Of a stretch of 64,000 nt of DNA, positions 14,001-64,000 are shown piece by piece. How positions within the stretch are numbered: position 1 is the stretch's first letter; every line of letters starts with the position of its first letter. The stretch comes from a virus (Duplodnaviria; Caudoviricetes). The notes below the pieces were generated by a model. It saw only the letters and a list, made by a program, of their open reading frames with translations, searched no databases and was not told the origin of the DNA. The position numbers and the translations under genes are program-made. Where the stretch lies: positions 144,459 through 208,458 of the IMG/VR virus record IMGVR_UViG_3300015214_000001; one strand, 5' to 3'.

Positions 14001-14592
14001 CATAGATAGTCGTTATGTTCGCATCCCACATCGGCTTATCTATCACATAAATACCAGCTACAGCGCCATCCTTGTAAGAATAAATCGGATTGCCTTCTCG
14101 ATCTGCTATAACAGCGCGATTAGTTTTTACTTTATAGGCGACAGAAGCTCCATAGATTGATTCGTTCAGCCAAGTTCTTGACAAATACTCAGCGCCATCT
14201 TTGCTGAGTATTTTATTTAAGCGGTCAGTTTCAGGTAAACGCACCCATTGACCATCTTTTTCAATCTCAGCGACAATGTTTACACGCCTGATTAAATTCG
14301 CAACGCGGTTAATAGCCGCGTGCAAATAGACAGACGTTAAATATGCTGTTAAAACTTGGTTTTCAGAATAACCCAAGTTTCCAGCAGAGGCATTAATAAA
14401 TGAACTAATGTGAGAGCTAAAAACATCAAAGCTCTTTATAGATTGAGACGGGTCTATCAGTTTTATACCCCCGCCGCGATTGTCTGTATTATTCTGGTAC
14501 AGAGCAGGGGAGTTAGGTTTTGAATAAGGCTTCTGAGAAGGCTTATTATTATCAAATTGTTGCACCATTGAGGTGATCGCTTTTATAACCAT
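11002..14592 (-). CDS. Portal protein with tandem C-terminal repeats and fused 2H phosphoesterase domain
   Basis: N-terminal ~450 aa HK97-type portal (AYLTSVYLHAAINRVA, RGTSLV, YFTRGAMP, NEARVRMKMPP); two HITL motifs (~11900 and ~11645) of a 2H fold. Confidence 0.85.
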   Translation of the reverse strand: MVIKAITSMVQQFDNNKPSQKPYSKPNSPALYQNNTDNRGGGIKLIDPSQSIKSFDVFSSHISSFINASAGNLGYSENQVLTAYLTSVYLHAAINRVANLIRRVNIVAEIEKDGQWVRLPETDRLNKILSKDGAEYLSRTWLNESIYGASVAYKVKTNRAVIADREGNPIYSYKDGAVAGIYVIDKPMWDANITTIYGDIDGVNVNRYNTTSDILKDRTYLTRKEFIYVTRWNPANPVRGTSLVSVCIHEAVANSAIAQWMAEYFTRGAMPFILVSSGEEDSMLMTDSDVLKLKRAFEDNWQGMDASLRAMVTDKKLSIEQVGISASEIGAPDLNDTALEGIATTIGLDRELIVTPSGGSHDRHADLIKRAWDDTVIPLAERYVEALARDFGLRDGMRLVIDLSEISELDADRDDRAGVEVSLFDSQLQAYNEARVRMKMPPVKELDGWYLHDGVLTPLDRIVSSGNLPTQRQQTYADWLWANDLALKSEVLRMLGHELPPGMPDGYRSDLEQSKQFALDAWNSDLALKSQTLRALNLPVPEGREFEDGYQSELERGADFAEQVKDLWREKLIKRGEARSLLDIEEGPKGVDGYIDEVGEQRSNVMELWGGNILKRSEVRQELGLPPDDNIIDGYADEVRVKLDKLMNHDTQRVERILEYYNNDLVKRDIVQDALSIPVDNTTTGYKRVANVLDDAYAQELMSKDNIEEANDGVRAIPDETLEPTDTPPSGFTHQGNRDDELDMLLEKTLGGSPDGQLTFNDYLGNQTLRTDGPIGAAEETLVIDNSDNDPLPLSPLYGGEVDIMPSSALPVADEVEGVTDEFEEWLDEQTLDIDTDNGSYYENIATQTDGTSENQELYLSLWIGDEERLIELQDQLSAELGDDTAIEWQRPDTFHITLGYALSADGDAEKHLMGLLPSELVPLNIYVSHIDIFDNPDATVIYASVELTDDLKALQASVITRMQALNLPLSQHSKISNFTPHITLAYAPPNTFVRRHETPMVIRPMGLYVSRGDYEVVNEVPFLTMLEDYSGKSFVKDDVKDMSEKWMSDVEKRELNALYIGYERSNLLHKLSRYIQDQQGFDVNQLPPPMQADLLEFVNDVSSSEQRIKDNISSGKYDGQIRLFDIKDVETTRKALAELNKWRKATLKHGINKGLRFETLHIDEVLADKVKSALVESAPDIEGIFAKIKQDLLGG

Positions 14593-14629: not shown

Positions 14630-16666
14630 TTAAACACTTACCGAGAATAAGACTGTTGATTTGAGATTGTCGGCATTTGTGTTTTCAGTTGATGTAGAAA
14701 TGACATTCGATTTGATATATTTAATATCCCCTGTATGTCGATCTGTTACTGCAATCCCATTCAGATCGCCAATGTCCTTTAATGTCGTCTCTACTGCTTT
14801 TTGGTCATCGGCAAATCGCACGACTTCAATCAGGACATAACCATCAGGCGGGTTATCTTGTGGCAAACGATAACTGTTATGCGCCACAGAATCAATCGCA
14901 AGGTCAATAATAGCATCATTAATGTGATGACCTGTGTATTTTTTAATGCCAGGCGCTTCATCGCCATGCGTTGCTGATGGTAAAGTTAAGCAGTCAGCAA
15001 CCTTTTGCAGGGCATTCTCTAATCTATCAAGAGCTTTGTTTTGCCCGTCAATGATTTCCTCTGCGATCATCTTTTTTGGCTCATCAGCATTTTGTCTCTT
15101 ACCTGCTTCAATTAGAGCTTGATGTAAAACAATGCGTGCTGAACCAATACTATAGGTCGCATCTTGTAACGCACGGAAATATTTCCGCTTAGGCCCCGTT
15201 GTTACATTGGCCCATAATGGCAATGCCATTACTTGTAGCATGTGTTTATTTAAAGGGCTGATTAAATTAGCATAGCTAATCGGGTTAGCAGTAATGTCTT
15301 TATGGTCATCCACAATGCGTTTTAGTGTATCATGAACATCGCGGGTAATTTCGATCATGCTATCAATATCATCAGATGATTTAATAACGATCTTATTGTT
15401 TTTACGACTCTTAGTTGCCCCACGACCTCTTGGCTCTAAATCTGCGCCGAGCGTAATTGCCGAACCAGCACTTTCACCCTGCTCATTGATGAACCTTAGT
15501 TCATAACACTTCTGCCCATCAATATCAGAAACGCCAGTTACCTCTGCTAACGTCCTAAACATCTTTGAATAGACTATATCGCCAGGTAAAAATCGTTTCA
15601 CTAAATAGCGATAAGTTTGCGTATCATGTTTATATTGCGTTTCGCGTATGATTTCAAAGCGCAAATCTTCTATTGGGACAGGATCAACCCGACGACCAAT
15701 AACACTAATGTCGCCAGTAACATCCCTGCTAAAATTACGTCTTTCGATGTTAATTGGGGCATTCGCTGTTTTTACCGTCTCATTTCTAACCATCGTGTGA
15801 GAGCCAGATAACCGCTTTGCTTGCCACGCATCACAAACATAATTATCTTTTGCTGAAAAATCAAAGACGACACATTCGCCGCGCCCACCGTCTTGCGCTT
15901 TATAAAAACGGCATGTTTGGCATTGTCTTGGTGAGTCGTCTATAGATAGCCTATAATTAGGAACATTATCAGGCACTGAAATATTTGCGTTGCCATCGTC
16001 AGCCTTAGCTGTAAACTGTTCTTCTAGGACATCATTTGATTTGTTTTTCAGTGTTTGATGTAATTCAGATAAAATCCGTTCGCAATCGGATTGATACTTA
16101 TCAGACTCACCCATAAAAGTGTTATGGGTGTTAAGCACATCACCATAGCCAGTCAAGTGACATTCTTCTAATTCATTGACGACATTATCGACACTAGTTA
16201 TGAGTGCCTCCCACTTTTCATCTTGAGAGACAATGCTTTCATCGCCAATTTCATTTATTTCTGACAGCAACACTGGCAATGGCGCATAAGCAAGCGCCAT
16301 TGGGATATTCATTTCTGCTTCTGCTTTTTGAATAGAAGCCAGCCATCTTTTAGCTGTATCTCGAAAAGCAGTTACAATATCATGATCTTCCTTTTCTGGT
16401 CTATCTCTTATTGTGTCAGAGATAGTTTTAGATAAGTTTAAAAGGACAGGCAAAGCATTTTTTTGAGCATCTAAAGCATATGTGGCATTAGCCAACGCTG
16501 ATGCAATTAATTTGCCTTTAGTTTCTAAGTCCATCGCGCGTTGTCGCAACGGACTATCTTCTGGTAAATGCGAATAATGGCTACTCGAAAGAGTAGCCTT
16601 ATTGCGCGGGTGAGTAGCAAAGCCTCCGCTACTATCTTGGCTAGAATAATATCCTTTATTCTGCAT
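14630..16666 (-). CDS. Large hypothetical (probable head) protein with HiPIP-like Cys4 domain
   Basis: NYR..CQTCRFY..GECVVF..VCDAW; SH3-like segment PGDIVYSK..YELRF. Confidence 0.55.
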   Translation of the reverse strand: MQNKGYYSSQDSSGGFATHPRNKATLSSSHYSHLPEDSPLRQRAMDLETKGKLIASALANATYALDAQKNALPVLLNLSKTISDTIRDRPEKEDHDIVTAFRDTAKRWLASIQKAEAEMNIPMALAYAPLPVLLSEINEIGDESIVSQDEKWEALITSVDNVVNELEECHLTGYGDVLNTHNTFMGESDKYQSDCERILSELHQTLKNKSNDVLEEQFTAKADDGNANISVPDNVPNYRLSIDDSPRQCQTCRFYKAQDGGRGECVVFDFSAKDNYVCDAWQAKRLSGSHTMVRNETVKTANAPINIERRNFSRDVTGDISVIGRRVDPVPIEDLRFEIIRETQYKHDTQTYRYLVKRFLPGDIVYSKMFRTLAEVTGVSDIDGQKCYELRFINEQGESAGSAITLGADLEPRGRGATKSRKNNKIVIKSSDDIDSMIEITRDVHDTLKRIVDDHKDITANPISYANLISPLNKHMLQVMALPLWANVTTGPKRKYFRALQDATYSIGSARIVLHQALIEAGKRQNADEPKKMIAEEIIDGQNKALDRLENALQKVADCLTLPSATHGDEAPGIKKYTGHHINDAIIDLAIDSVAHNSYRLPQDNPPDGYVLIEVVRFADDQKAVETTLKDIGDLNGIAVTDRHTGDIKYIKSNVISTSTENTNADNLKSTVLFSVSV

Positions 16667-50144: not shown

Positions 50145-50181
50145 TTAAATTTCCTTGTGCTAATATTTAATCGTTAACAGC

Positions 50182-50211
50182 ACTATATATCGGGGGGGGT
50201 AGTTTTGTCAA
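50182..50211 (-). promoter_or_regulatory. TTGACA-18-TATAGT promoter with a C8 tract in the spacer
   Basis: G8 on + strand at 50192-50199. Confidence 0.6.
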
Positions 50212-50230
50212 TAACGATTTTACAATGTCA

Positions 50231-51532
50231 TTATCTCCAACCAGAGATAACTCTTAGCGCTCTCAATAACTCACCTTGAAAACGGTCGTCATCAATTCTA
50301 TATGCCTTCGGTTCTACATCGACACCATTAATTGTCAATAGTCGCCAATGTCGGCAGTTGCCAACGTTGAGAGTAACTGCTTTGCCATCAACATTGGTCA
50401 ATGATAATCTGCCTACTGGCTCTCTATCTGTAATCTGCAAGTGATACTGAGTAGTGATGCACATTTTACTCAAATAGGTAATCCCGCGCATTAGATCATC
50501 AATTGGACTTTGTGCATTATAAAAAAGCATAAGGACTGGCATCAGTGGATTGTTTGATAGTTTAATCAGCTGTTTAGTATGGGGTGTTTCGTACAACCAA
50601 GCTGAGACTGTTCTTGATTCGTCGCTCTTGTGCCAATAAGACAATGTATAGCCATGCTCATTTTTAACTTTATCAACACGGCCATATTGCCAAATGGGTG
50701 ATTGCATTGCAAATGTCATATTAACTTCTTGCATCAGTCGCCTTTGGTAATAACTCGATGCTGATCGGGTGAGCATGTGTCAAGTAATCGGCAAAACTTT
50801 CCTTAGTCATCATATCTACCCCGTCCATGCTGGAAAGCAATATATATTCACCGACTTTAAAATAGCCGATACGCCCTTGAAAATCCTGTGTCAGTTCTTT
50901 CTTCACTTCTGCAATGAGTTGGTCAATTTGTGCTATCTGAAACTCAAGGTCTTGTCTTTGTCGATTATTCTCAATATAGCGCTCAATTAACTCAGCAGTC
51001 ATCACCCCTTCTGGTATGCCATTCACATAATCAAACAGCAACGTTTCACTATGTAGATCATGTGTTTTCTGCTTAACGCTAGTCAGCAATTGAAGATTGT
51101 CGCATTGTGTCAAGATATATTGGATGTGTTCGGGAATATCAAACACATCTTCAATACGTGGCAATAGTTCAATTCGCTGATTAATTTCTTCACTGCTATT
51201 CATTGGTCTATCCCCGTTGTATGCTAATAGAGCTACGGCTTGCGTAACTGTTTATACGATTATAGCACGGATTATGAGCTAATTTTCGCAATATACGCAT
51301 TTAAAACCGCTTCAATATCGGCGGCAAGGTTATCACCGCTGTAGATCAGTTGATCGTCGGCTGACCAGCCGAACAGTCCTTGATTGACTTCATCAAACAC
51401 GCATGGATACCACCAGCGCGACTCGAATTCATTAATCGCAACATAGGCTTTTTTGTTGGTGGGGTTGCGCTTGCCTAGCGCGTTAATCATGCTATCCGCT
51501 AGGCGTTGGCTTGTTTTGATGTTCTCAAACAT
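50231..51532 (-). CDS. Hypothetical genes 50231..~50719, 50721..51203 and 51272..51532
   Basis: Packed ORFs with SD sequences. Confidence 0.55.
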
Positions 51533-51740
51533 AATTTATCCTTATTCTAAAGTTACAACAAACGTTCTATACATTGTGCCATAGGTGCTAAGAAAATATC
51601 AATCCTCAATATTTTTATTGTGTATTTTGCCCTATAGTTTTAGGTAGTTTTTCCCTCAAATTGATAATGTTAAGGGTTATATTTTGTTGTGCATTATGCT
51701 ATATTAGACCTATCGCAAGCTATAAGAAAGACTGTCTAAA

Positions 51741-52904
51741 ATGTCTGCTTTTGAGATAAATAAACGTTATATTCACTCAATGCCGATAGGCAACATATCA
51801 GATACAGGAATAAAGTTAATCTGTGAGTACCTGACAAACATTAGACCTAGTTCTGATGAATTGTGGAAACAAACCAATGTAGACCGACATTTACCTTATG
51901 TTCTATCAGGCTTACCTGATGACTGGTCTTATACTTGGCTAGTAACAGGACGCGGGGAATATGTAGGTACATTCCCAAAAAGAATCGCTAAATATTATTA
52001 CCAAACACACAAGATCAAAATGCCGTCGAGTATTTTATCTCAAATTGGCAATATTGCTAAAGATCATTCAAGTGATATTGCTACCTATGAGTTTGATTTT
52101 ACAGATACTTTTGATTGGCAATCAGGCGATTATGGCGATAGTGGTTCGTGCTATTGGGGTAGCTATAGTTCTGCTAAAGAACTATTGTCTAGTAATGGTG
52201 GTCTTGCCATCAGGTTTTACAAAGACAATCAGGGATATGGTAGGGCTTGGATTATGCCCCATAATGAGTGTTACTACTTATTCAATGGGTATGGCTTACA
52301 ATTAGTATCAATTGCAAGGATTTTATCATCATTCCTTAATTTGTCTTATAAGGCTATTAGGATTAGTGCTATTCGATATATATATATCAATGGCGGTAAT
52401 CAATACGTTGTAGGGGATGTATCGGCAATTGCTGACATTACAAGCTATCATATCAATGTTGATGGCGATATTGAAGATGAGGATAACCGTCAATGTGATT
52501 GTTGTGATGATACATACCACTATGATGATATGTATTATACAGAAGATGATTATTGTTTATGCGAATCATGCTATACACATGAGACAACAACTTGCTATGA
52601 TTGCAATTGCACATATTGGCATGATGATGATATGCGTTTTATTGAGAACATAAATAGTAACGTTTGTGAAAGTTGCTATGAGCAATCATACTCTATGTGT
52701 GATAGTTGTGCTGATTATTTTAGCAACGACGTGTTGACTAATACCAGTGGTGATGATTATGTTTGTGAAAGTTGCTTAGAAGAATATGCACATTGTGAAT
52801 CTTGTGAGCAATTAATCGAATCTAACAGATTGATAGAACATGACGACTTGAATTATTGCGAGTCGTGTTATGCCGAACTATCATTAGAAACAAGCGATGA
52901 TTAA
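51741..52904 (+). CDS. Hypothetical protein with C-terminal tandem CxxC (Zn-ribbon) repeats
   Basis: CDCC, CESC, CYDC, CESC, CDSC, CESC, CESC, CESC in the last ~140 aa. Confidence 0.7.
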   Translation: MSAFEINKRYIHSMPIGNISDTGIKLICEYLTNIRPSSDELWKQTNVDRHLPYVLSGLPDDWSYTWLVTGRGEYVGTFPKRIAKYYYQTHKIKMPSSILSQIGNIAKDHSSDIATYEFDFTDTFDWQSGDYGDSGSCYWGSYSSAKELLSSNGGLAIRFYKDNQGYGRAWIMPHNECYYLFNGYGLQLVSIARILSSFLNLSYKAIRISAIRYIYINGGNQYVVGDVSAIADITSYHINVDGDIEDEDNRQCDCCDDTYHYDDMYYTEDDYCLCESCYTHETTTCYDCNCTYWHDDDMRFIENINSNVCESCYEQSYSMCDSCADYFSNDVLTNTSGDDYVCESCLEEYAHCESCEQLIESNRLIEHDDLNYCESCYAELSLETSDD

Positions 52905-52913
52905 TTAGCTTTA

Positions 52914-52949
52914 AAAACCGTCATAGATTATTATGGCGGTTTTATTTTT
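52914..52949 (+). terminator. Intrinsic terminator AAAACCGTCATA...TATGGCGGTTTT
   Basis: Stem plus T-tract after 52904. Confidence 0.7.
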
Positions 52950-52960
52950 AGTATCACTCA

Positions 52961-53124
52961 GAACAAAAGTTTTAAAAATAAAATAACCCCATTCTGAACT
53001 ATTAGCGAAACAGTTTAGAACAAATGTTCTGATCGTAAAATCGGCGTGATAAAAAGTTTGAGTGTTAGAACAAATATTCTGATTATTAGTAATTTTTTAA
53101 GATTAATTAATAGAACATTTGTTC
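52961..53124. promoter_or_regulatory. Cluster of four GAAC-N4-GTTC (LexA/Cheo-box-like) sites
   Basis: GAACAAAAGTTT 52961, GAACAAATGTTC 53018, GAACAAATATTC 53068, GAACATTTGTTC 53113. Confidence 0.65.
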
Positions 53125-53150
53125 TCGTTTTGCGGCATTACACTGATTGG

Positions 53151-54832
53151 TTAGATCAGTGTAATTTGATTTGAGCCGATACTGCCGATAAGTTGTTGAC
53201 GCAAGAGGGTTAGACGTTGAATTTCATCGTTGATTGCGCCGATACAAACATCGTGTTTTTCTTTTACTTTGACATGGGTTTCCATTTTGTCGATTAGACC
53301 GCTAGACGACGCATAGCGGACATGACGGGGTGTTTGATACTCTTTGACTACAAACCGATTGTGTATTTCTTCATCTAAAGCAGACACGGATAATTGCACA
53401 GAGGGGTCAATCTGAAACTTATCGGCAATAGAACCATCAAGTACATTATAAATATATCCAAGTGATAATCGAATAGCTAGGCGTTGAATTTCTTCGACTT
53501 TGCCCCATCGAGAGTTGATATGCACGCTATATTGACCATTAGCATCAATAGCTACATTAGGATCAACCTCTCCACTTCCCAAAGTAAATGGCAAATGATA
53601 CGCATTATTCACAAGTGTAACTTCCATCGGACATTTGATGAAAGCATCAGGCGATAGTGCCTTGATTTTATTGTCAAGAATAAGCGCATATATATTCGAT
53701 AGGGTGACATATTCTTCTATAAAGAAATAGTAGTGTTGTTGAATTGATCCCACATTCATCAACCAATTCAAATCATCAATCATCTTCTGACACGTATCGG
53801 CTGATACCAATGGATATTGATTGATGAGGTCAATATCTTCATTTGATAGACCAGCTACACTATATGATAATGTATGCCGCCAGCCTCGAGATGGATTATA
53901 ACGCCACACTAATGGATGTATGCCAGTCACCACATATGCTAAACGTGCAGAGTATTCAAAATACCATTCAAGATCATTATCAGAAGTTCCAAAACCTTCA
54001 ACAAACTGCCATATACCATCCTCATGCTGGTAGTGCTTAAGTTCTTCTGTTAGTGTAAGCTGCTTAGTATAGAACCATGACATTTCTAATGGCATTAGAT
54101 TGAATCCTTATTTTGTGTGTCTAACCAGTTGACCAATTTGTTATAAATCAAATCAGGCGTATCATAGAACCCGCGCACACCACCGTAATGATAATGCCCA
54201 AATACATGGGTTAAAGTAATGAGGAATAAGTGCTTATGATAACCCAACAATGAACCATGAAAATCATAGTTAACACCGATGTTTACACTATCGTCACCAT
54301 TGACGATATGGCGGCGCTCAACACTGATAGTTATGCAATCTTCATTAACAATTGTGACCAGACCTTCATCATTAGGATAAAACAGCTTATCAAGTGCTGA
54401 TAGAATGTTAGATGATAAACGAATAGATGCTTTACGTTCAAATGTTAAGTTATCTGGACTTGGAATTAATGCCACAATATCATCTGACTGTGAATATTCC
54501 CTGAAAAAACGTATCAGTTCTGAGATTGACTTATCATCTGCATTTCCGTCCCAGTAGATAATTTTTTGATCTTCATCAAGGAAGTCAAAGCCACCTCTAA
54601 TGCCTTCCAACACACCTGCACTAAAATCTATATCATATGCGTGAATGAATATAGCGCCTTTAAAGTAGGGGTCTAACGGTTGGTACACTGTAATGTCGCC
54701 TTTTTGCCAATTATTATACCCATGTGTCGAGCCTTCTTCTGGCTGGAATTGTTTATACTTATTGAATTCATCAACAATGCGTTCAATAACAGCCTTACTG
54801 ATTGCCACTTCAAAGTAATTTTCTCGTTGCAT
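53151..54832 (-). CDS. Two hypothetical proteins (53151..54095 and 54095..54832)
   Basis: TAATG-coupled long ORFs. Confidence 0.6.
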
Positions 54833-54847
54833 TCCTATTCCTTCTTT

Positions 54848-55210
54848 CTAGTTGTTGTCGCTATCGGCACATTGACCGATAACGCTGTCAACTGCTTGGC
54901 GATGAACTGGGTTTGAATAATACTCATCAGCATTGTTGATAACTCGCTGAATAAGACTTAATCCTACAGGGGTTATTTTATCGGGATTAATAACTAACAA
55001 CCGCTTCACAGCATCGGCGTTAAACGCCCCTACAAGCTGACCAATGGCTTTATTGACAAATGGCGTACAGATTACACGAACATTCGTAAAATCAAGCTCT
55101 ATGGGGCTGTTTTGGTTGATATATGGCGTAATCAGATCGTAGACCTTATCACCAGCATCTAATGTGATACAAAATTCACCGACTACAGCGCCAACGTTGA
55201 TTATTTCCAT
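54848..55210 (-). CDS. STAS-like (DUF4325-type) domain protein
   Basis: GEFCITLDAGDKVYDLI..IELDFTNVRVICTPFVNKAIGQL. Confidence 0.7.
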   Translation of the reverse strand: MEIINVGAVVGEFCITLDAGDKVYDLITPYINQNSPIELDFTNVRVICTPFVNKAIGQLVGAFNADAVKRLLVINPDKITPVGLSLIQRVINNADEYYSNPVHRQAVDSVIGQCADSDNN

Positions 55211-55257
55211 TTTAATCTCTCCTAAATAACCCCATAATGATACATGAATAGTGCTGT

Positions 55258-56714
55258 TTAATCTACCCTCAATACGATGTGTTCTTCAATATATTTTATT
55301 ATCAATGGCAGGTTGGAAGTTGATAGTACAACTGCACCATCTGACAGCACAGAGTCGTGCCAGCGCAAACAGAACATCGGCATAGATTTTTTGTCGATAT
55401 ATAAAGACAGAGCTTCATCTGACACAATACCATCAACAATTGATCTAAAGATAACTTTATGTTGACAGTCAAGTAACGTCAGAAAATGGTCAGCATGAAG
55501 ATCAACTAACTTCAGTTGGTTAATCTCATCTTGAACAGCGGTGAAATAATCGTCTTTCTTCTGATCTCTGATAATTGCTAAGATCAATTTGACAATCTGA
55601 AAACTAACTTTGCTTGATGGGGACATAATTTAATCTTTCGTTACTAGGTTATCTAATGGGCGTTCTATGCGCGTGTTGGCTTTTAGTTGGCGGGATGTGA
55701 TGATATTGGTAGCTAATGTTGTTAAGCTGTTAACTACCCTCTCCTGCGGCCCGCGAAAGTAAATCTTTTCAGGTGTGATTAAATCAGCAAACGACAACAA
55801 CTCACTAGGATTATCTGCCAGATTAATTGCACCAAGCCAACTATCGCCGCCTTTTTCTGCGACGTTCGCAATAACCGCTAATTGTATATAGCTATCACCA
55901 TATAGCGCTATGATTGCATGTTGGTGTTCGTCGGTGTTGGCGCACTCTGTTCCCAAGATTGCTGGATACATTGACATTTAATTATTCTCCCCTGATTAAG
56001 TGTTTTGATAGTGATTGCACGAATACTTCGTTGTGTCGATGTTGCGACAACAACTCGACTGCTGAGTACATTTCATCGCTATCATCTTCTGCCAATAGCG
56101 ACAAACAAAGAAGGTCAAATAATCGGCTATCCGCAGATAAAATCGCTTCTTCAAATTGTTCTACGTTGTTTTTATCGGCGCTCGGGTTATATAAATTATC
56201 TACTAAGCCTTGTAAGGCTACGCGATCACTACTCATCATCTTTCAGCCTTTCTCTTGTTGAGAAGTCAATGTCCCCACGAAGTTCTCTGATTAGTTCTTC
56301 GCTTGTTGCACCATCAGGGAAAAGACCAGCCAATACGCCTCTTGCTTTGCGATAGTCGGCTATCTCTTGTTTTGGCATTTCCCACATGGTTACTTGATCT
56401 TTAAGCACATTCACGATCATCTGACAGTCAGCAGCATCAGCTAGAGCTAGTTCAACAGCTATGCTTGCCTGATCTGTTCTTGGTTGTCTCAATATAATGT
56501 GCTTACTGAGCCTTCGATAGTGCTGAGATGTCCATCGTTTCTTACTAGCGCTAAACCATGTCACCTCAATAACATCCATCCAATCTAGTTCTGCATCATC
56601 AATGTAGTTGACATTTGTTACAATGCCGACGCAACCCTTATCTACATAGGGGATTGATGACGCACATACAACAATGTCGGAAATCATATAGTATCCTGGC
56701 CTGTCTGTTTCCAT
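55258..56714 (-). CDS. Hypothetical genes 55258..55626, 55630..55977, 55982..56239 and 56229..56714
   Basis: Packed operon-like ORFs. Confidence 0.55.
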
Positions 56715-56815
56715 GTATTCCCCTTCTTGTTATGAAATGTGCTACGCCTAAAACAAGACATAGTACATTATAAGTTAGATTTGATTATACTTGGTTTGAT
56801 GGCTATTTACTATAG

Positions 56816-57526
56816 CTATTCATCAATTAAATGATCTGGCAACCAACTGACGGGTTCAACATCCCCAACATAAATGCCAGTATAACCATAACCTGCAAGC
56901 CAAAGACCTACTACTAGCGCGTTGGGGAAATAATTAAATTGGCGCACGTTCATCTCATCATCATCAAAGTTAAATAAATGACAATGATAAGGAAAATCGG
57001 CGGATGGCCAATTAACATGAGATACATCTAGCATTAAGCGACCATACATAATTTGATACTGATTACCTGTCAAGCCAGCTTCTCTGTTGAGGTCAGACTC
57101 ACCATAACCATACCCTTTAACGTGTCTCCAACCCCACATTCCAAACCAGTTTACGGCAGTAGGTTCAGAATGATACATTAAGTTTACTAGCATCGCCATG
57201 ACAACAACAGTTATATCATTGATGATTGTTTGAAACTGCTCCTTGTTAGGTTGTTCAAGTGCGACATTCATGCTGTTAAAACCATCACATCTTTGGAAGT
57301 CTTGGTTCATATGTATGTCGATACGTTCCGAAGAAATAAAAATATTGTAATCGGCAAACATCAATACGAATTGCCCTCTGTCTTTTAAGAACCAACGGAA
57401 ACTAACCCCATCCATATCATTGATAGACTGGATAACACCATCTACTCTCTCATCAGCGATACCCCGATGAATATTCCACAACACATCGAGTTGCTCTTGC
57501 GTGAAACGGCTCTCCGCTTTATTCAT
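56816..57526 (-). CDS. Hypothetical protein, paralog of 57618..58313
   Basis: T.EQ...LWNI at the N-terminus, VGLWLAGY.Y at the C-terminus. Confidence 0.6.
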   Translation of the reverse strand: MNKAESRFTQEQLDVLWNIHRGIADERVDGVIQSINDMDGVSFRWFLKDRGQFVLMFADYNIFISSERIDIHMNQDFQRCDGFNSMNVALEQPNKEQFQTIINDITVVVMAMLVNLMYHSEPTAVNWFGMWGWRHVKGYGYGESDLNREAGLTGNQYQIMYGRLMLDVSHVNWPSADFPYHCHLFNFDDDEMNVRQFNYFPNALVVGLWLAGYGYTGIYVGDVEPVSWLPDHLIDE

Positions 57527-57566
57527 TATGTTTTTCCTCTCGTAAGTTATTTGTTCTGTGAAGTGA

Positions 57567-57593
57567 ATTTTACCCCCCCATTACAAATGTCAA
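57567..57593 (-). promoter_or_regulatory. TTGACA-15-TAAAAT promoter with G7 in the spacer
   Basis: C7 on + strand at 57573-57579. Confidence 0.6.
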
Positions 57594-57617
57594 GGGAGAG
57601 GTAAATCATAGAGGGGG

Positions 57618-58313
57618 TTATCTTACGGAAGGATCATGGCCTTTAGCGTAATCATATCCAGCAAGCCATAAGCCGACTGAAAGTTCTTCGGCACTGCTAT
57701 CTACAACGTGACGCGCAGTAATTTCGCCGTCGTTATTAGTTTCTTCAAAAATATACTTTAGCCAATTAACTGAATAGTCATAAGACACGCTTCTTGATTT
57801 GTCGGCATAGTCCACAGTTACTCTGACATGCTTCGCTTCCGATCCATTAATGCCATATAATTTGTCAGAAACAACTGTTAGTTGCTTCTCGTATCCGCGC
57901 ATCCACTGAACCAAGTCGCGCAATGACAAATTACCAGGTGTCCATGCCTCATCCTCATAGAAGAACATATCTGTAGAACACATTAACGCAGGCAGTCGAA
58001 TGTCAGTCAAAAGTGCCTTGAACACCCAGAATGGGATACCTGTTAAGTGCCAGTCGGCAATATCAAAGCCACCGTCAACGGGTGTAATTATCTTTACGAT
58101 ATAGTAATCCTCTTGGGCAACAATTCTATACTCTGCTGGCCGACCTTCGCTAGGTAATGTTTGAATCACGAAAGAATTTTCTTTCTCGTTGAATGGTTGA
58201 AGCGCCCCATCACTAATAAGCTCATCAAGACAACTATCCCATTTGCTATCTTTGATATTCCATAATGCTTGTATTTGTTCATCGGTTAAAGGTGTAGAGG
58301 TAAACATCGTCAT
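57618..58313 (-). CDS. Hypothetical protein, paralog of 56816..57526
   Basis: Same shared terminal motifs. Confidence 0.6.
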   Translation of the reverse strand: MTMFTSTPLTDEQIQALWNIKDSKWDSCLDELISDGALQPFNEKENSFVIQTLPSEGRPAEYRIVAQEDYYIVKIITPVDGGFDIADWHLTGIPFWVFKALLTDIRLPALMCSTDMFFYEDEAWTPGNLSLRDLVQWMRGYEKQLTVVSDKLYGINGSEAKHVRVTVDYADKSRSVSYDYSVNWLKYIFEETNNDGEITARHVVDSSAEELSVGLWLAGYDYAKGHDPSVR

Positions 58314-59098
58314 TATTCCTTTTCTGGTTTTTGTCTTGGGTCGAATACCTTTATTTTTTGGAAATTAGCATCATAAAACGCTCTAAGTAAGCGCTCTAAG
58401 CCTTGAGTAGTTGTACAAGAGCGATATTCGTACTGAGGGTTACTTATCGACTTCTTTTGCCCTAACATATACCTTTTGGGTTCATACCAGCCGACAATGC
58501 GCGGCTCATTACTACCAATCCCCTCAGCGATAAGTGTTAATGAATCTGCGACGATAATATCATCTAAAAATTCAAAACTCAGCATCTTTTGATTAGGGCC
58601 GACAATATGCGGCGATAGCACAACGTGGTAAAAGGTATTGTATCCTAGCAACTTACTCTTTAATGCGCGTTCTCTTTGCTCAAGATCATCATGCTTGATC
58701 CCTAGTAGCAAGTCAAAAATACAATCGAATTTCCAAGTGTCAAAATTTCTAAGAATATAGGAGGTTTCCATAGGGCCAACCATATCATCTGTATATTTAA
58801 TGACAACTTCGTCTGTTTTATTGCCGATTGTCAAGGCGTTACTATCGCGTGTCCATGTGACATAATAATCACCTAGCAATTTAAGGCTGAACACTTCGCC
58901 AGATGAAGTTACTTCGCTTGTAAAATCTGGTCGATCAGCAATCCATTCCTTGAAAAACACTTCTCTGCGTGTCACATCTTGATACGATATGTAATCGGCA
59001 AAAATACTGTGTGCATCAATGAGCTTCATTATGCTTGATCCTAGTAAACTACAGAAAGGGGTAAAAACGTGGAACTCCACGTTTTTGTTAATAGACAA
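58313..59098 (-). CDS. Hypothetical protein (start likely MKLIDAH, ~59029)
   Basis: Long ORF; the annotated N-terminus overlaps palindrome copy 4. Confidence 0.55.
   Translation of the reverse strand: MSINKNVEFHVFTPFCSLLGSSIMKLIDAHSIFADYISYQDVTRREVFFKEWIADRPDFTSEVTSSGEVFSLKLLGDYYVTWTRDSNALTIGNKTDEVVIKYTDDMVGPMETSYILRNFDTWKFDCIFDLLLGIKHDDLEQRERALKSKLLGYNTFYHVVLSPHIVGPNQKMLSFEFLDDIIVADSLTLIAEGIGSNEPRIVGWYEPKRYMLGQKKSISNPQYEYRSCTTTQGLERLLRAFYDANFQKIKVFDPRQKPEKE
59063..59086. repeat. Palindrome AAAAACGTGGA-AC-TCCACGTTTTT (copy 4)
   Basis: Perfect copy immediately after the stop of 59088..60005. Confidence 0.85.
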
Positions 59099-61229
59099 AA
59101 GGCGCTTGGTGAGGCTTAATATTCAATTGTGCCATCAATGATCCTAATTCAGGCAATTGTTTGACGTATGTTTTATCAGATGTCTTGACTTCATACCACA
59201 CCCCACTACCTAACTCTTTCCTTTTAGTGATGGTGATGTTGGTATCGGCAACTCTGATTGGCTTATTGTCAATCAACACTTCCTTTGCCCACCAGTTCCA
59301 GAAGATATAATTCAGGTTTGCTGGTGTAATCGGATAATCATAAAATGCAATTTCTGTTTCATCAGCAAACGCAACTACATTTGACTGACCATCTTCAATC
59401 GCGCTTTTCTCACTGGGTCTAATGAGGTAATCAACTTCTACTAAGTTTCCGTCAATGGGGTCAAATAATAGTTGTCGATTAAATGGTGGAAAGTTACGGG
59501 TTTCCCACACCGTATTTCGCTTGACCTTATGCCATAACGGATGTAATACGCCATAGACCGCATTAGCGTCTTGAAATGACGCAGTATTATTTAATAGCGT
59601 AATAAAAGCTGGCACTCTTTCCCATTCATATGTCTTTTCAGAGCGATATTTACTGATTAAATGCTGTGCATCTTTATACGCAATAATGCTCTGGATTAGG
59701 TTCTCACGGTTGCTAATGGGTTCTTTGCTATCAGATGTGCGATCATATAATAATCGGTCAACTGATACATATAACTCATCGCCAATCGTTATCCCGTGTC
59801 CAGCATTTAATACCGATAAGAAATCATGGTAGACATCGGCATTGACTTTATCAAACTGGACATCCTCTCCATATGTTGCGATCAATGTATCCTCATATTC
59901 CAACCGCAACTCAATCTCATAGCTATCAACTAAATATATCTGATAGCCCTCGGGCCATGTCCAGTTCTTGCGCTGCTTTAAAAAATCAATAAAGTTGTCG
60001 TTCACAGTGAGCCTTTCAATGGTGCGAACATTTGTTTTAGGTGCTTATTTTATCAGGATGTCTTACTATCTATTAATGTCAACTATAGGGGTGAGCAAAG
60101 CACACTGAATACTGTTCTTTATCAGCGTGCTTTGTTATCTAGTCCTTAATGGTAATTGTCTTAATACCAGTCCATTTACGTCTTACTCGTGGCTCATAGT
60201 CTAAATGCACCAAGAGTTGCAGATCATCGCTATCTTCATAGTATTGGTCAAACAGATCAGAGTTAAATAGGATATAGTGCAGATGGCCGATTGTTGTTTT
60301 AATTGCTCCATCCGCAAATTGGCTTGTTAGTTCACGGAACGCACTTAGTTCTTTCTCTAACCGTTCACCGCGTGCAAATTGCTGATAGAGCATAGAGAGG
60401 CTACGCATGAAGGTGAAATCCCTTGATAGTGCCTCTTTGCTATTACCGTTAAATCCCCATCGCAGATCAACTAGAGGAAATTTACTGTTATCCTTCTGAG
60501 CTTTCAATACGATGAAAGCCGACACAACCCCTTTGCTAACTAAATTTGTTTTGTCGTCTAACTCTATGTGACAAGAATATGTCATATCATCCACGCGCTT
60601 AGTATTCCAAGCCTGAATAATATTAGAGCGCTTCAACGGATATGATGAGTTCTTGATCCAGAATGTCCGAATGCCCATATCTGTTCTAAATACTGGGCTA
60701 CGCAGTTTCACATTGCTGCCTTCTGACCATGTATTAAATCCATTTGTTAATGTCATTGTTGACCTCCTTTTTCACTTGTTAAGGGTGGGATTTGCTTATG
60801 AGCCACCATGCACTTAATGATCGTCTCTCTGTGGTCATCAAGATAACCAGCTATATCATCAGCGTCATATGGAGAGAAACGGCTTTGATGGACACTAGCT
60901 CTCACAATAATGTTTTTAGCAATTGGTGAAAATTCCACCAAGCCGACATAGAACCCGCGATGGTTAGTCAGTTGAGCCTCACGCCAACCATATACCATCA
61001 GCTTAGTTTCCTTGTTATGTCGATGCGCTAAAAACACAGCATACTGGATGTCACTATTGCTATTCATAAAGATGGTTGGAGCTTCATCTTTGATGGTATT
61101 CAGCGCGGAGCAATAGATATTGTTCTTGATTGCATATTCAGTTGGTGTCCATTTCTCATGATTATCTTCATAATCATATAGCTTTTGAATTGCTTCAATG
61201 AATTTATTCTTGTCGTTAACTCCTAGCAT
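59088..61229 (-). CDS. Hypothetical genes 59088..60005, 60139..60756 and 60753..61229
   Basis: Long ORFs with SD sequences. Confidence 0.6.
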
Positions 61230-62087
61230 GATCTTTCTCCTTTACTAGGATATATTGCACATGCAGAGGGGCTAACACAAATGCGCCACCTTTTGCGGGT
61301 GCGCGATAGTACAGTTCATTTGTGCGCTCAAAATCTATTGCCGATACAAGCCCAAACATGCCACTGTCATACATGCACTGGGAGCTATGATAAAGAACGT
61401 ATCCTTCATCAACTAAATTGAATATCTCATCACGAGACATTAATTGGCTATTATAGTACGTTGTATTTTCAGTGTAGCTGGATCGCTGACCAACTAACGC
61501 ATATTTGTTTTGTTGTTGGTTAGCAACGTACAACTCGATCTCAACGCAAAGAAAACCATCATCTTCTGATGGAGCGTGATAGCGCCACACCCCATCTAGG
61601 TGATCCCACTCACGCCAGAACATCAAGACAGTTGTTTTAGTCATGACTACAGAACAGTCTTGATTAAAACGTACTGGATGTCGGCATGAGCATTGTCATC
61701 AGCATCGTATAGCTGGTTGTCAGCGACATTCGCAATGCGATCATGACTGATACCTTGAGGATCATTAGCTGAGATGCTCGGAAAGAATAGCATAACATCT
61801 GATGGGTTATCAATAAGGTACTTGACGCTATAAATACCCCACCCCATATCTTGAAGGTCTCTGACTTCTTCATCAGACAAATCAGCAATTACGTATTCAT
61901 CTGATGATAATGGGCCAGTGATTTTAACTGGCAATAACTTCACACCAAGATCAACAATATTGAAGCGTGCCGATAAGTTGATCTTCTCCCACTTGACACG
62001 ATGGCTACACATGAACGTGTATGGCGCGGAATATTGCCATCTGCCTGTCTTGAGGTCTGCCATTCGGTTGACCAGTAATACGCGCAT
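61216..62087 (-). CDS. Two paralogous hypothetical genes (61216..61644 and 61647..62087), DUF4177-like
   Basis: G.W.Y.AP, L.D.G(Y/W).(L/I)Y and QY(I/V)L(V/I)K shared. Confidence 0.55.
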
Positions 62088-62088
62088 T

Positions 62089-62538
62089 TCATTTCCCTTT
62101 CAGTTTATTTAAAAATTCAATAACGCCTAATTTAACTGATAATACCATATTATGCGTATTTGCAACACGGTAAATTATGATATGAATTTCACCCTTCCCT
62201 TTACCAACCCCGCGATCAAGCGCAGCGCCAATACGCACAATCTGACGATCATCAACAAATGCAATTTCATTGAGCGCGTCTAATACTGCCTTGAGCAGGT
62301 TATCTATATCGGCATTGCGGCGTGTCTCTTGGCTAAAGCCGACTTCAATCCCAATGTCATATGGTGTGGGTTCTAAACCAAGTTGCGACATTGCGCTTTG
62401 TGTCATCAGTTTCAAGTAATCTTCATAGTCTTTTGTGCGTTGTGGCGTATAAGCGCGTCCATTTGCTACGCGAGGTCTGCCTTTGGGGACTGGATCAATA
62501 TTGATTGTTAACGCAAATATTATGTCTTTGAATCTCAT
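62089..62538 (-). CDS. rusA: RusA-family Holliday junction resolvase
   Basis: PVPKGRPR..YTP..T..YE; ADIDNLLKAVLDALN..FVDDRQI. Confidence 0.9.
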   Translation of the reverse strand: MRFKDIIFALTINIDPVPKGRPRVANGRAYTPQRTKDYEDYLKLMTQSAMSQLGLEPTPYDIGIEVGFSQETRRNADIDNLLKAVLDALNEIAFVDDRQIVRIGAALDRGVGKGKGEIHIIIYRVANTHNMVLSVKLGVIEFLNKLKGK

Positions 62539-62620
62539 ATGTAACCCTCAATTAATTACAGTGGATATATCAGTAGATTGCCGACATATCCACCACAACA
62601 TCAACTGGGTTTATTTTACC

Positions 62621-63418
62621 TTACTTGTCAACATATGGGAAAGACATGATATGGTTAACTAAGGCATAATAGACAATATCAGGTAAGTTGTCGGCAAAAT
62701 AAAAAGGCTTATCCGTTACTGGTATATATATACCTAGATTTCCTGATCCTACTATGCCCTTAATGCTGAAACTAAATCGTTTATGACGATGGGGCAGATC
62801 GACATCATAATCGTGCATCACTCTAACATCATCAGCCTCGAATAAGATATGATCTTTCAGAGATAACACATCAACGTATTCAAGATCGCGGAAAAAACGG
62901 TTAAACTTACGTTCAACTTCTGCATCGCGCGGAATATCATAGCGCTTACATACGAATGGTGGAGCGTATTTTTTACGGGGCGCTTTAGCCTTATCGCCTT
63001 TCACTAGATCAACTAGAAACCAGTAAACCGCGTCTTTTGTTGCGGCTGAAAGGTCGCCGTAATCTCCTAGTAATATATTTGGCGCAAAAATATTATCGTC
63101 AGTGTCAGTAAACGAATGTGTCGATTTAACAATATTGCCTCCGCAAGCATCAGCCATGACGAATTCAAGAAAAGTCATTGTCCCACCGTATAAGGTCGCA
63201 CTCTGAATAATTAGTATCCCTAATTCACCAAACTCACCTAATCGCTTGATAAATCTATGTGTCTCAAGCCCTACTATCGGTGATAAAGATATAACCTTAT
63301 CGCCAAATGCTATTTGACCATGTGACGCTAACGGGCAACTTTCAACTAATGCTTTCAGTTGCTCGTCTATGGTTCTGTTGCACTCAATTAATCCATAATA
63401 CCCTGTTTCTTTTGACAC
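62621..63418 (-). CDS. Hypothetical protein
   Basis: 265-aa ORF. Confidence 0.55.
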   Translation of the reverse strand: MSKETGYYGLIECNRTIDEQLKALVESCPLASHGQIAFGDKVISLSPIVGLETHRFIKRLGEFGELGILIIQSATLYGGTMTFLEFVMADACGGNIVKSTHSFTDTDDNIFAPNILLGDYGDLSAATKDAVYWFLVDLVKGDKAKAPRKKYAPPFVCKRYDIPRDAEVERKFNRFFRDLEYVDVLSLKDHILFEADDVRVMHDYDVDLPHRHKRFSFSIKGIVGSGNLGIYIPVTDKPFYFADNLPDIVYYALVNHIMSFPYVDK

Positions 63419-63485
63419 TGCTAAAAAAATGTTCGTTGTCTTGAAACCGCATTTAACACCTCATAGAATATTTGATCTATAGCGT

Positions 63486-63512
63486 ATTCTCCCCCCCCGA
63501 ATATTTTGTCAA
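63486..63512 (-). promoter_or_regulatory. TTGACA-15-GAGAAT promoter-like element with G8
   Basis: TTGACAAAATATTCG8; near-duplicate of the 63871 element. Confidence 0.5.
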
Positions 63513-63590
63513 ACCGTTAATATAACAAAAAAGCCGATAGACATTTCTCTATCGGCTTAATCGGCTTTGAGTGAAACTGTGGAATAAGGC

Positions 63591-63845
63591 TTAAACCCCA
63601 GTCTCGTATCGCGCCCACCGCATCAAGCGTGGCGCGACTTTAATTCCCTCCTGTTCAGCAACAACGACAATCGCCATTGCTGCGGCTTCACGATATGATA
63701 CTGCTTCATGGAACACATGGCTATCAACAATCAATTCAACGCGACGGTTGCGCTTATTCCAGCGTGTGTACACATCGCCTGATGTTGCTGTTTCAATCTT
63801 GCCTAAAATTGCTTTAACTGATTTCTCTTTCATGTGTAACTCCAT
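63591..63845 (-). CDS. Hypothetical protein
   Basis: SD GGAG before MKEKSVK. Confidence 0.55.
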   Translation of the reverse strand: MELHMKEKSVKAILGKIETATSGDVYTRWNKRNRRVELIVDSHVFHEAVSYREAAAMAIVVVAEQEGIKVAPRLMRWARYETGV

Positions 63846-63870
63846 ATGTTCCTAATTAACTTATACTCTT

Positions 63871-63898
63871 ATTTTACCCCCCCCCGAATATTTGTCAA
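63871..63898 (-). promoter_or_regulatory. TTGACA-16-TAAAAT promoter with G9 in the spacer
   Basis: C9 on + strand at 63877-63885. Confidence 0.65.
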
Positions 63899-64000
63899 CA
63901 GGTTTTTGTTATGGAATTGTCAAGATAAATAAAAACAGCCTATTCATTGATAGGCTGTTCTGACTGCAATAGGCTGTTGAAAGATATTACTTGCTTTCCA

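Follow-up and report, generated by a model that had tools for sequence, protein, structure and literature searches.

G-run-bearing candidate promoters ahead of ORFan units in an uncultivated landfill phage

In Neisseria meningitidis, porA, fetA and opc are controlled by homopolymers between the -10 and -35 elements, and slippage in the spacer homopolymer changes both the spacing and the expression level (PMC2791445). The homopolymer switches described in phages lie inside genes, in receptor-binding proteins and the T2/T4 contingency loci: Campylobacter Fletchervirus phages carry hypermutable poly-G tracts (Sorensen et al. 2021, Cell Rep 35:109214), and the 2025 preprint that covers the contingency loci of T2/T4 phages does not contain the word 'promoter' (bioRxiv 10.1101/2025.10.21.683753). 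The T4-type phages RB49 and phi1 have promoter-early stem-loop (PeSL) cassettes, whose strong sigma70-like promoters and stem-loop terminators recur in pairs in a plastic early region, flanking small ORFans; homopolymer runs are not reported there (PMC2839356). The phage described here shares with porA, opc and fetA a G or C homopolymer inside a sigma70-type -35/-10 spacer, with Fletchervirus and T2/T4 the slippage-prone homopolymers that would diversify progeny, and with the PeSL cassettes, at two of its sites, the pairing of promoter and terminator. It differs from Neisseria in having about 20 such candidate promoters ahead of cytoplasmic ORFans, instead of single bacterial surface-protein genes. 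Whereas the Fletchervirus and T2/T4 devices are frameshift switches within genes, the runs described here lie in promoter spacers, although the phage also has coding runs, as in its methylase gene; and, unlike RB49 and phi1, it is unrelated to T4.

The source is a circular 208-kb contig of an uncultivated landfill phage with an HK97-type capsid; the window analysed, a stretch of 64,000 nucleotides, is the contig end, and coordinates refer to it unless given as genome positions. Across the 208-kb genome there are 41 G/C runs of at least 7 nt, with about one expected. Counts by length are 51 runs of 5, 10 of 6, 3 of 7, 29 of 8, 9 of 9 and 1 of 11; with expectations extrapolated from the decay of run counts (about 0.6 runs of 8 and about 0.1 of 9), runs of 8-9 are in roughly 50-fold excess. 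A/T runs show no excess, the longest being 8. The first base of the contig falls inside a run. A blastn search against phages gave no match, nor did the specific cassette pattern in IMG/VR; protein-based locus searches returned nothing close, the distant loci retrieved lack the runs, and a virion protein has just 8 homologues, at identities of 37% or less.

A preliminary description of the window had reported four TTGACA/-10 pairs separated by C8, G7, G8 and G9 tracts, and all four are present as described, on the minus strand, as candidate sigma70/sigmaA-type promoters. Their -10 boxes are TATAGT, TAAAAT, GAGAAT and TAAAAT (sites 1 to 4 respectively) and their spacers 18, 15, 15 and 16 bp, so that the claimed absence of a 17-bp spacer holds and the anatomy bears out a -35/-10 distance set by the homopolymer. 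The sites lie in intergenic gaps of 86, 91, 172 and 155 nt, and ORFs preceded by Shine-Dalgarno (SD) sequences start 31-72 nt downstream in the same orientation. At sites 3 and 4 an intrinsic terminator immediately precedes the promoter, a PeSL-like pairing among ORFans; no clear terminator precedes site 1 or site 2.

Site 2 (57567-57593) reads TTGACA (57593-57588), 8 nt, G7 (57573-57579) and TAAAAT (57572-57567), and the first gene of its unit, a 236-amino-acid (aa) ORFan (56816-57526, minus strand), starts 46 nt from the run behind the SD sequence GAGAGGAAA. At site 3 (63486-63512), TTGACA (63512-63507) is followed by AAATATTC, G8 (63491-63498) and GAGAAT (63491-63486); the final G of the run is the first base of the -10, and the T at -12 is missing. 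The first long gene of unit 3 is an ORFan of 265 aa that starts with GTG (62621-63418, minus strand), after which come rusA (62089-62538, minus strand; RusA, PF05866) and more ORFans as far as a terminator at 59060-59087. Site 4 (63871-63898) matches 11 of 12 hexamer positions and comprises TTGACA (63898-63893), AATATTC, G9 (63877-63885) and TAAAAT (63876-63871). A minus-strand terminator lies upstream of it at 63932-63961, and its unit holds a single gene, an 84-aa ORFan (63591-63845, minus strand), bounded by promoter 4 and, just ahead of site 3, by the minus-strand terminator at 63531-63558 that closes the unit (a stem of 11 bp and then a T run). Sites 3 and 4 have in common the element TTGACAAA(A)TATTC-Gn, as had been noted. 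Site 1 (50182-50211; TTGACA at 50211-50206, 18 bp, TATAGT at 50187-50182) likewise matches 11 of 12 hexamer positions, and its architecture is unlike that of sites 2-4: the promoter strand carries C8 (50192-50199), which lies 4 nt from the -10. It sits between the ORFs at 50231-50776 and 49563-50144. The latter, a minus-strand 193-aa ORFan that starts 47 nt from the run and is preceded by AAGGAAA, is followed by a C5 cytosine DNA methylase (48603-49541, minus strand; PF00145, E = 1e-49), which, together with rusA behind site 3, agrees with the earlier proposal that the ORFan-led units contain both genes. The ORFans that head units 1 and 2 and the one in unit 4 yielded no Pfam, PHROG or PADLOC family. 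A plus-strand reading of site 1 (G8-TAGTTT) was rejected as the main one: it lacks a -35 and no plus-strand gene follows, whereas the minus strand offers TTGACA-18-TATAGT and a gene.

The four sites belong to a larger class. Seventeen of the 41 long G/C runs form one promoter family, TTGACA followed by 7, 8 or 10 nt and G7-9 abutting TA[A/G]AAT. Sites 2-4 are members, site 1 is a variant whose promoter strand carries C8, and the whole class comes to about 20 promoters genome-wide. The 17 canonical members are confined to one arc of about 62 kb of short ORFans, and none of the 18 neighbouring products looks like a signal peptide. Their spacers measure 15 (n = 7), 16 (n = 5), 17 (n = 1) and 18 bp (n = 4), so off-optimal spacing is a property of the class, with 17 bp in only 1 of 17, rather than of the four sites. 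Runs are almost always 8-9 long whether the gap is 7, 8 or 10 nt and do not compensate for it; the quantity kept in the phage family is run length, not total spacing. The two tract-free promoters with 17-bp spacers that had been set against the four sites do exist (42789-42761, TTGACA-17-CATAAT; 47988-47960, TAGACA-17-TATAAT), but the contrast is weak because consensus promoters free of the tract are about as frequent as chance predicts: TTGAC[AT]-N14-19-TAnnnT has 57 tract-free matches against about 44 in shuffled sequence, beside 16 matches that bear the tract.

Run lengths also differ between assemblies. Over 20 kb, the window and the Logan contigs of two landfill sequencing runs, both possibly source samples, show no substitutions and two indels, both in G runs. 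At site 4 the window has G9 where the contigs of both sequencing runs have G8, and in the run inside the methylase gene (48856-48864) one of them (the X2 contig) has G8 against G9 in the window; since contigs were compared and the sequencing runs may be source samples, assembler or homopolymer error is possible at G9 versus G8. One of the four promoter runs thus differs, those of sites 1-3 being identical in the assemblies compared. Elsewhere in the genome, otherwise identical paralogous cassettes differ by G8 versus G9 alone, for example those at genome positions 10729 and 13641. The earlier view of the four sites as spacer rheostats stands in part: site 4 does differ by one G between assemblies, but the four are members of a class of about 20 and site 1 is built differently.

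The architecture is not confined to this phage. TTGACA-N7/8-G8/9-TA[A/G/T]AAT is widespread in bacteria, including small-genome Clostridia and other uncultivated bacteria; at least 120 contigs from metagenomes contain it, as do at least 120 from reference genomes. Copies reach 12-37 in a bacterial genome of about 1 Mb, with none in the reversed control. The genes downstream are enriched in signal-peptide or lipoprotein paralogues (115 of 197, against 274 of 1,820 control ORFs; p = 2e-38), and orthologous copies show a one-G difference between samples. The bacterial families thus have the same architecture as the phage family but head secreted-protein genes and keep gap plus run at 16 across lineages, that is, a 16-bp spacer with compensation, unlike the uncompensated 15-18 bp of the phage copies. 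Such families of G8-9-run promoters upstream of surface (lipo)protein paralogues have apparently not been described before.

We favour, at a probability of roughly 0.55, a reading in which these are early promoters for the host polymerase whose slipping G run sets each ORFan unit independently. Sites 1-4 would act as sigma70/sigmaA-type promoters for host RNA polymerase, each serving a small, presumably early unit of a large phage of lytic type. Members of the class consist of TTGACA, an AT-rich gap of 7-10 nt, a G8-9 run and a -10 touching the run. Replication slippage at eight or nine Gs would yield progeny with one G more or fewer at single promoters, moving the -35/-10 distance among 15, 16, 17 and 18 bp and altering transcription of the unit. 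With G at -14/-13, the end of the run would probably serve in addition as a partial extended -10, which would account for its contact with the -10 and for G being on the coding strand. About 20 slippage-prone promoters, one of them differing by one G between assemblies, probably amount to random variation in the output of single early genes, much as some bacteria vary their surface-protein genes, and if early ORFan units were set separately and reversibly in this way, the benefit would be bet-hedging. As judged from the letters, the rheostat reading of the G runs is plausible. A 15-bp spacer is poor for E. coli sigma70; with seven phage promoters at 15 bp and bacterial copies at 16, the true optimum of the design may differ. 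An account of G-run promoters at 15-16 bp by helical twist lacked support and was dropped.

The strongest competitor, which we nonetheless regard as unlikely, is a fixed promoter element: a structural or recognition module with a G8-9 length held by selection, recognised by the host's polymerase or by a regulator of phage or host origin, slips being deleterious and switching non-adaptive. All 17 canonical promoters have the run in contact with the -10, and in 17 of 18 cases the coding strand carries the G, irrespective of genome strand; neither feature is needed by a pure spacing device, so the run may be a promoter element. In porA, too, the run touches the -10. A fixed element would further suit the finding that hardly any consensus-grade promoter in the genome lacks the run, the narrow length range, and the uniformity of the bacterial copies (G9 in 33 of 35 in one genome, G001; G8 in 21 of 21 in another, G002) with gap plus run at 16. 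Against it, similar runs in coding sequences break frames: the methylase run leaves the gene in frame as G9 and out of frame as G8, and as G10 meets an immediate TAG stop. A run that interrupts the coding frame, as in accessory genes, makes sense there only through its mutability. The inverted run of site 1 sits off the -10 and still within the spacer, lengths vary between assemblies and between paralogues, and the bacterial copies head multigene surface-protein families, in which phase variation is classically found. No RNA-polymerase element is known to require eight Gs, which also counts against this explanation.

It is less probable still that the run is a passenger, spread with a mobile PeSL-like terminator-promoter cassette by recombination in a hyperplastic early region and reflecting common descent, not function. 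Cassettes are alike over up to about 60 nt (site 4 and genome position 33423 share TTGACAATTCC-TAACAAAA-CC...TTGACAAATATTC-G9), many copies follow a repeated terminator, AAAAACGTGGA..TCCACGTTTTT, and the adjoining genes are ORFans, all as common descent would have it. In many members, however, the hexamers and the run are the sole likeness, with unrelated gaps of three lengths, and a G8 that was neutral would erode, yet there are hardly any runs of 6-7. Nor was any joint supported for recombination between cassettes (deletions or mini-circles); the single joint seen, from 44837 to 63509 in X2, was rejected, having only 21 nt on one side and no cassette at its far end. An artefact of sequencing or assembly, or a chance meeting of runs and hexamers, is scarcely credible: homopolymers are prone to error and the contig starts within one, but three assemblies agree on run positions throughout the 20 kb compared, the runs hold a fixed register within a 29-nt motif, and their excess is about 50-fold.

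If the slipping-run reading is true, a phage with a homopolymer switch in nearly every strong early promoter would carry such switching over to a graded setting of early and host-takeover genes, one unit at a time, and consensus genome sequences would hide a large regulatory diversity among virions. More tentatively, TTGACA-N7/8-G8/9-TAnAAT could be a distinct and widely shared stochastic-switch module, which would serve surface-protein multigene families in many uncultivated bacteria and which this phage would have taken up for about 20 early units. Virions would then each have a combination of early genes of their own, some strong and some weak and perhaps directed against host defences, a combinatorial bet-hedging by transcription and not by frameshifting; we hold this to be possible, though somewhat doubtful. 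The bacterial survey suggests that the module is a common phase-variation device, overlooked until now, of uncultivated bacteria from the gut and the environment, in which it could be searched for directly by pattern. In IMG/VR, controls for the position and strand of the run, all with small counts, gave no locus with C8 abutting the -10, two loci with G8 abutting the -35, two new ones with G8 placed 4 nt from the -10, and five with G8 abutting the -10.

Sequence inspection bore out all four promoter candidates of the preliminary description, on the minus strand and with hexamers, runs and spacers exactly as claimed (window coordinates unless marked as genome): site 1 (50182–50211), TTGACA-18-TATAGT with C8, read on the promoter strand, at 50192–50199; site 2 (57567–57593), TTGACA-15-TAAAAT with G7 at 57573–57579; site 3 (63486–63512), TTGACA-15-GAGAAT with G8 at 63491–63498, the last G being the first base of the −10; and site 4 (63871–63898), TTGACA-16-TAAAAT with G9 at 63877–63885. 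They lie in intergenic gaps of 86, 91, 172 and 155 nt, respectively, each with an ORF start 31–72 nt downstream, and strong intrinsic terminators precede site 3 (63558–63531) and site 4 (63961–63932). An independent consensus scan of 46–64 kb, the spacer range of which (16–18 bp) sites 2 and 3 fall outside, placed sites 4 and 1 within the top four promoter matches.

The window is the final 64 kb of a single virus contig of 208,458 bp (39.5% G+C), the ends of which overlap by 123 bp, starting within the site-4 run; the genome is therefore circular or circularly permuted, at about 208.3 kb. No nucleotide match was found among deposited phages and no close relative in IMG/VR. The genome carries genes for a portal and for a capsid of the HK97 type. 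Of the 994 aa specified by the capsid gene (5938–8922, minus strand), only the last 300 have the HK97 fold, and the 1196-aa portal protein (11002–14592, minus strand) has a C-terminal 2′-5′ RNA ligase/LigT-like domain. The adjoining 678-aa protein (14630–16666, minus strand) belongs to no Pfam family and has just 8 homologues, at no more than 37% identity, in 5.8 billion proteins; it carries invariant Cys and YxCDAWQ motifs.

Lengths of G/C runs are bimodal genome-wide (51 of 5, 10 of 6, 3 of 7, 29 of 8, 9 of 9 and 1 of 11), with fewer than one run of 8 expected from extrapolating the decay of shorter lengths, and no A/T run is longer than 8 although the genome is 60% A+T. TA, often TAG(A), follows 31 of the 41 runs of at least 7, including coding runs without a −35 (30944, 37303 and 48856). 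One promoter design is common to 17 of the 41 distinct runs: TTGACA (a 5/6 match in two copies), a gap of 7, 8 or 10 nt that is frequently AATAWTC, and G7–9 contacting TA[A/G]AAT. Sites 2, 3 and 4 belong to this family. Site 1 is non-canonical: its run has the opposite orientation, with C on the coding strand, and stands 4 nt away from the −10. It is probably a real variant of the design, because a perfect TTGACA and a TAnnnT flanking a run by accident are very unlikely.

All family members fall in one arc of short genes that extends from genome position 202 kb over the junction to 48.6 kb, where many are preceded by a repeated terminator and some are arranged divergently, back to back in pairs. 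The terminator is a palindrome, AAAAACGTGGA(A/G)(C/T)TCCACGTTTTT, seen at 59060–59087 and in many other genome copies across the early region, often directly upstream of G-run promoters. No Pfam, PHROG or PADLOC family was found for the first gene behind any promoter tested; the genes fit host-takeover or accessory functions, presumably expressed early. Matches to TTGAC[AT]-N14–19-TAnnnT comprise 16 that bear a tract and 57 that are tract-free, against a shuffle expectation of about 44 for the latter. The earlier interpretation is partly supported, but the tract-free 17-bp promoters that it set against the homopolymer-spaced sites offer a weak contrast, the tract-free matches being close to chance. 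For practical purposes, the consensus-grade promoters of this phage are the ones that carry the run.

Spacers in the family measure 15 bp (seven promoters), 16 bp (five), 17 bp (one) and 18 bp (four), and the run is 8–9 long at every gap length, so that compensation towards a fixed spacing is absent: the run itself is conserved, rather than the total spacing. It touches the −10 in all family promoters, and 17 of 18 promoters have G on the coding strand (about 1e-4 by a two-sided binomial test, for copies that are not fully independent). This bias holds on both genome strands and therefore follows transcription, not replication. A pure spacing device needs neither feature; on a simple reading, the last Gs would serve as a partial extended −10 motif, with a G at −14. 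The main rival explanation, which we consider unlikely, takes the G run as a fixed element of the promoter, with no adaptive switching. We slightly favour (probability about 0.55) a class of early promoters in which a slippage-prone run doubles as a promoter part, so that each transcription unit would be tuned stochastically, one by one, through its own run.

Bearing on slippage, contigs of two landfill runs, possibly the source samples, differ from 44001–64000 by no substitutions and two indels, both in G runs. Site 4 is G9 in the window and G8 in the contigs of both runs; the second indel lies in the gene of the C5 cytosine DNA methylase (48603–49541, minus strand), the second gene behind site 1. 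Its run (48856–48864, minus strand) is G9, in frame and with the C-terminal GNAV motif kept, and is G8 in the covering contig of one landfill run, X2 (depth about 8). At G8 the gene is out of frame, and at G10 it meets a TAG stop at once. Sites 1–3 have equal run lengths in all three assemblies. Otherwise identical paralogous cassettes differ solely by G8 versus G9. This evidence, genuine though limited, makes the runs the genome's most mutable positions, or at any rate its most ambiguous ones. Separately, contig depth in run X2 rises abruptly at 53491, from about 8 to about 27, and the left part is fragmented, which suggests two phage variants with a common right-hand region.

The module recurs in bacteria. 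TTGACA-N7/8-G8-TANAAT was found in at least 120 contigs of a metagenome collection and at least 120 of a reference-genome collection; among the matches listed, runs were mostly G9 or G8, and orthologous promoters of different samples showed a one-G difference. With a looser pattern, five small uncultivated genomes of about 0.9–1.3 Mb, one of them a Rickettsiales MAG and the others Clostridia MAGs (G001–G005, that is L170, L146, L169, L147 and L222; loci L265–L277), yielded 37, 21, 12, 13 and 12 copies of TTGACA-N7/8-G8/9-TA[A/G]AAT, against 0 in a reversed control. Their spacers are mostly 16 bp; in G001, 33 of 35 copies carry G9 and one carries G10 (17 bp). The genes they head are paralogous and start with signal peptides or lipoboxes: by a crude classifier, across all loci fetched, 115 of 197 first downstream ORFs looked secreted, versus 274 of 1820 control ORFs (p = 2e-38). 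The corresponding count was 0 of 18 for phage proteins downstream of G-run promoters. Such a setting is the one classically associated with phase-variable surface antigens; nature therefore uses this architecture where stochastic switching would be expected. We found no description of multi-copy G-run promoters of small bacterial genomes in the literature searched.

In Neisseria, expression of porA, fetA and opc depends on homopolymers in the −35/−10 spacer (PMC2791445). In phages, poly-G tracts occur in receptor-binding genes of Fletchervirus (Sorensen et al. 2021, Cell Rep 35:109214), and homopolymer runs of T2 and T4 are contingency loci in a 2025 preprint that does not mention promoters (bioRxiv 10.1101/2025.10.21.683753). 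The phage shares with porA the homopolymer in the spacer, and with the PeSLs of T4-type phages (PMC2839356) the cassettes of terminator and strong promoter around ORFans; its design would thus act like a porA-type rheostat set in PeSL-like cassettes, and is a candidate for phase variation, the functional hallmarks of which are frequency, reversibility and an effect on expression.

Two further features adjoin the promoters. In the leader of the unit behind site 3 (63384–63452, minus strand), a good SD, GAGGTG, and an ATG open an ORF of just 22 codons; the 265-aa gene has an SD-less GTG start, which this short ORF overlaps. Between the two is a T7 run, and with one T fewer the ATG and the long ORF would share a frame. 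Another conserved box, (G/C)TATAA(G/A), which could be the start region or a further promoter box, of late type, lies about 5 nt past the −10 at 63856–63870 and recurs in five other cassettes (genome 10729, 31322, 42044, 48612 and 30789), sitting further downstream of the −10 in the last.
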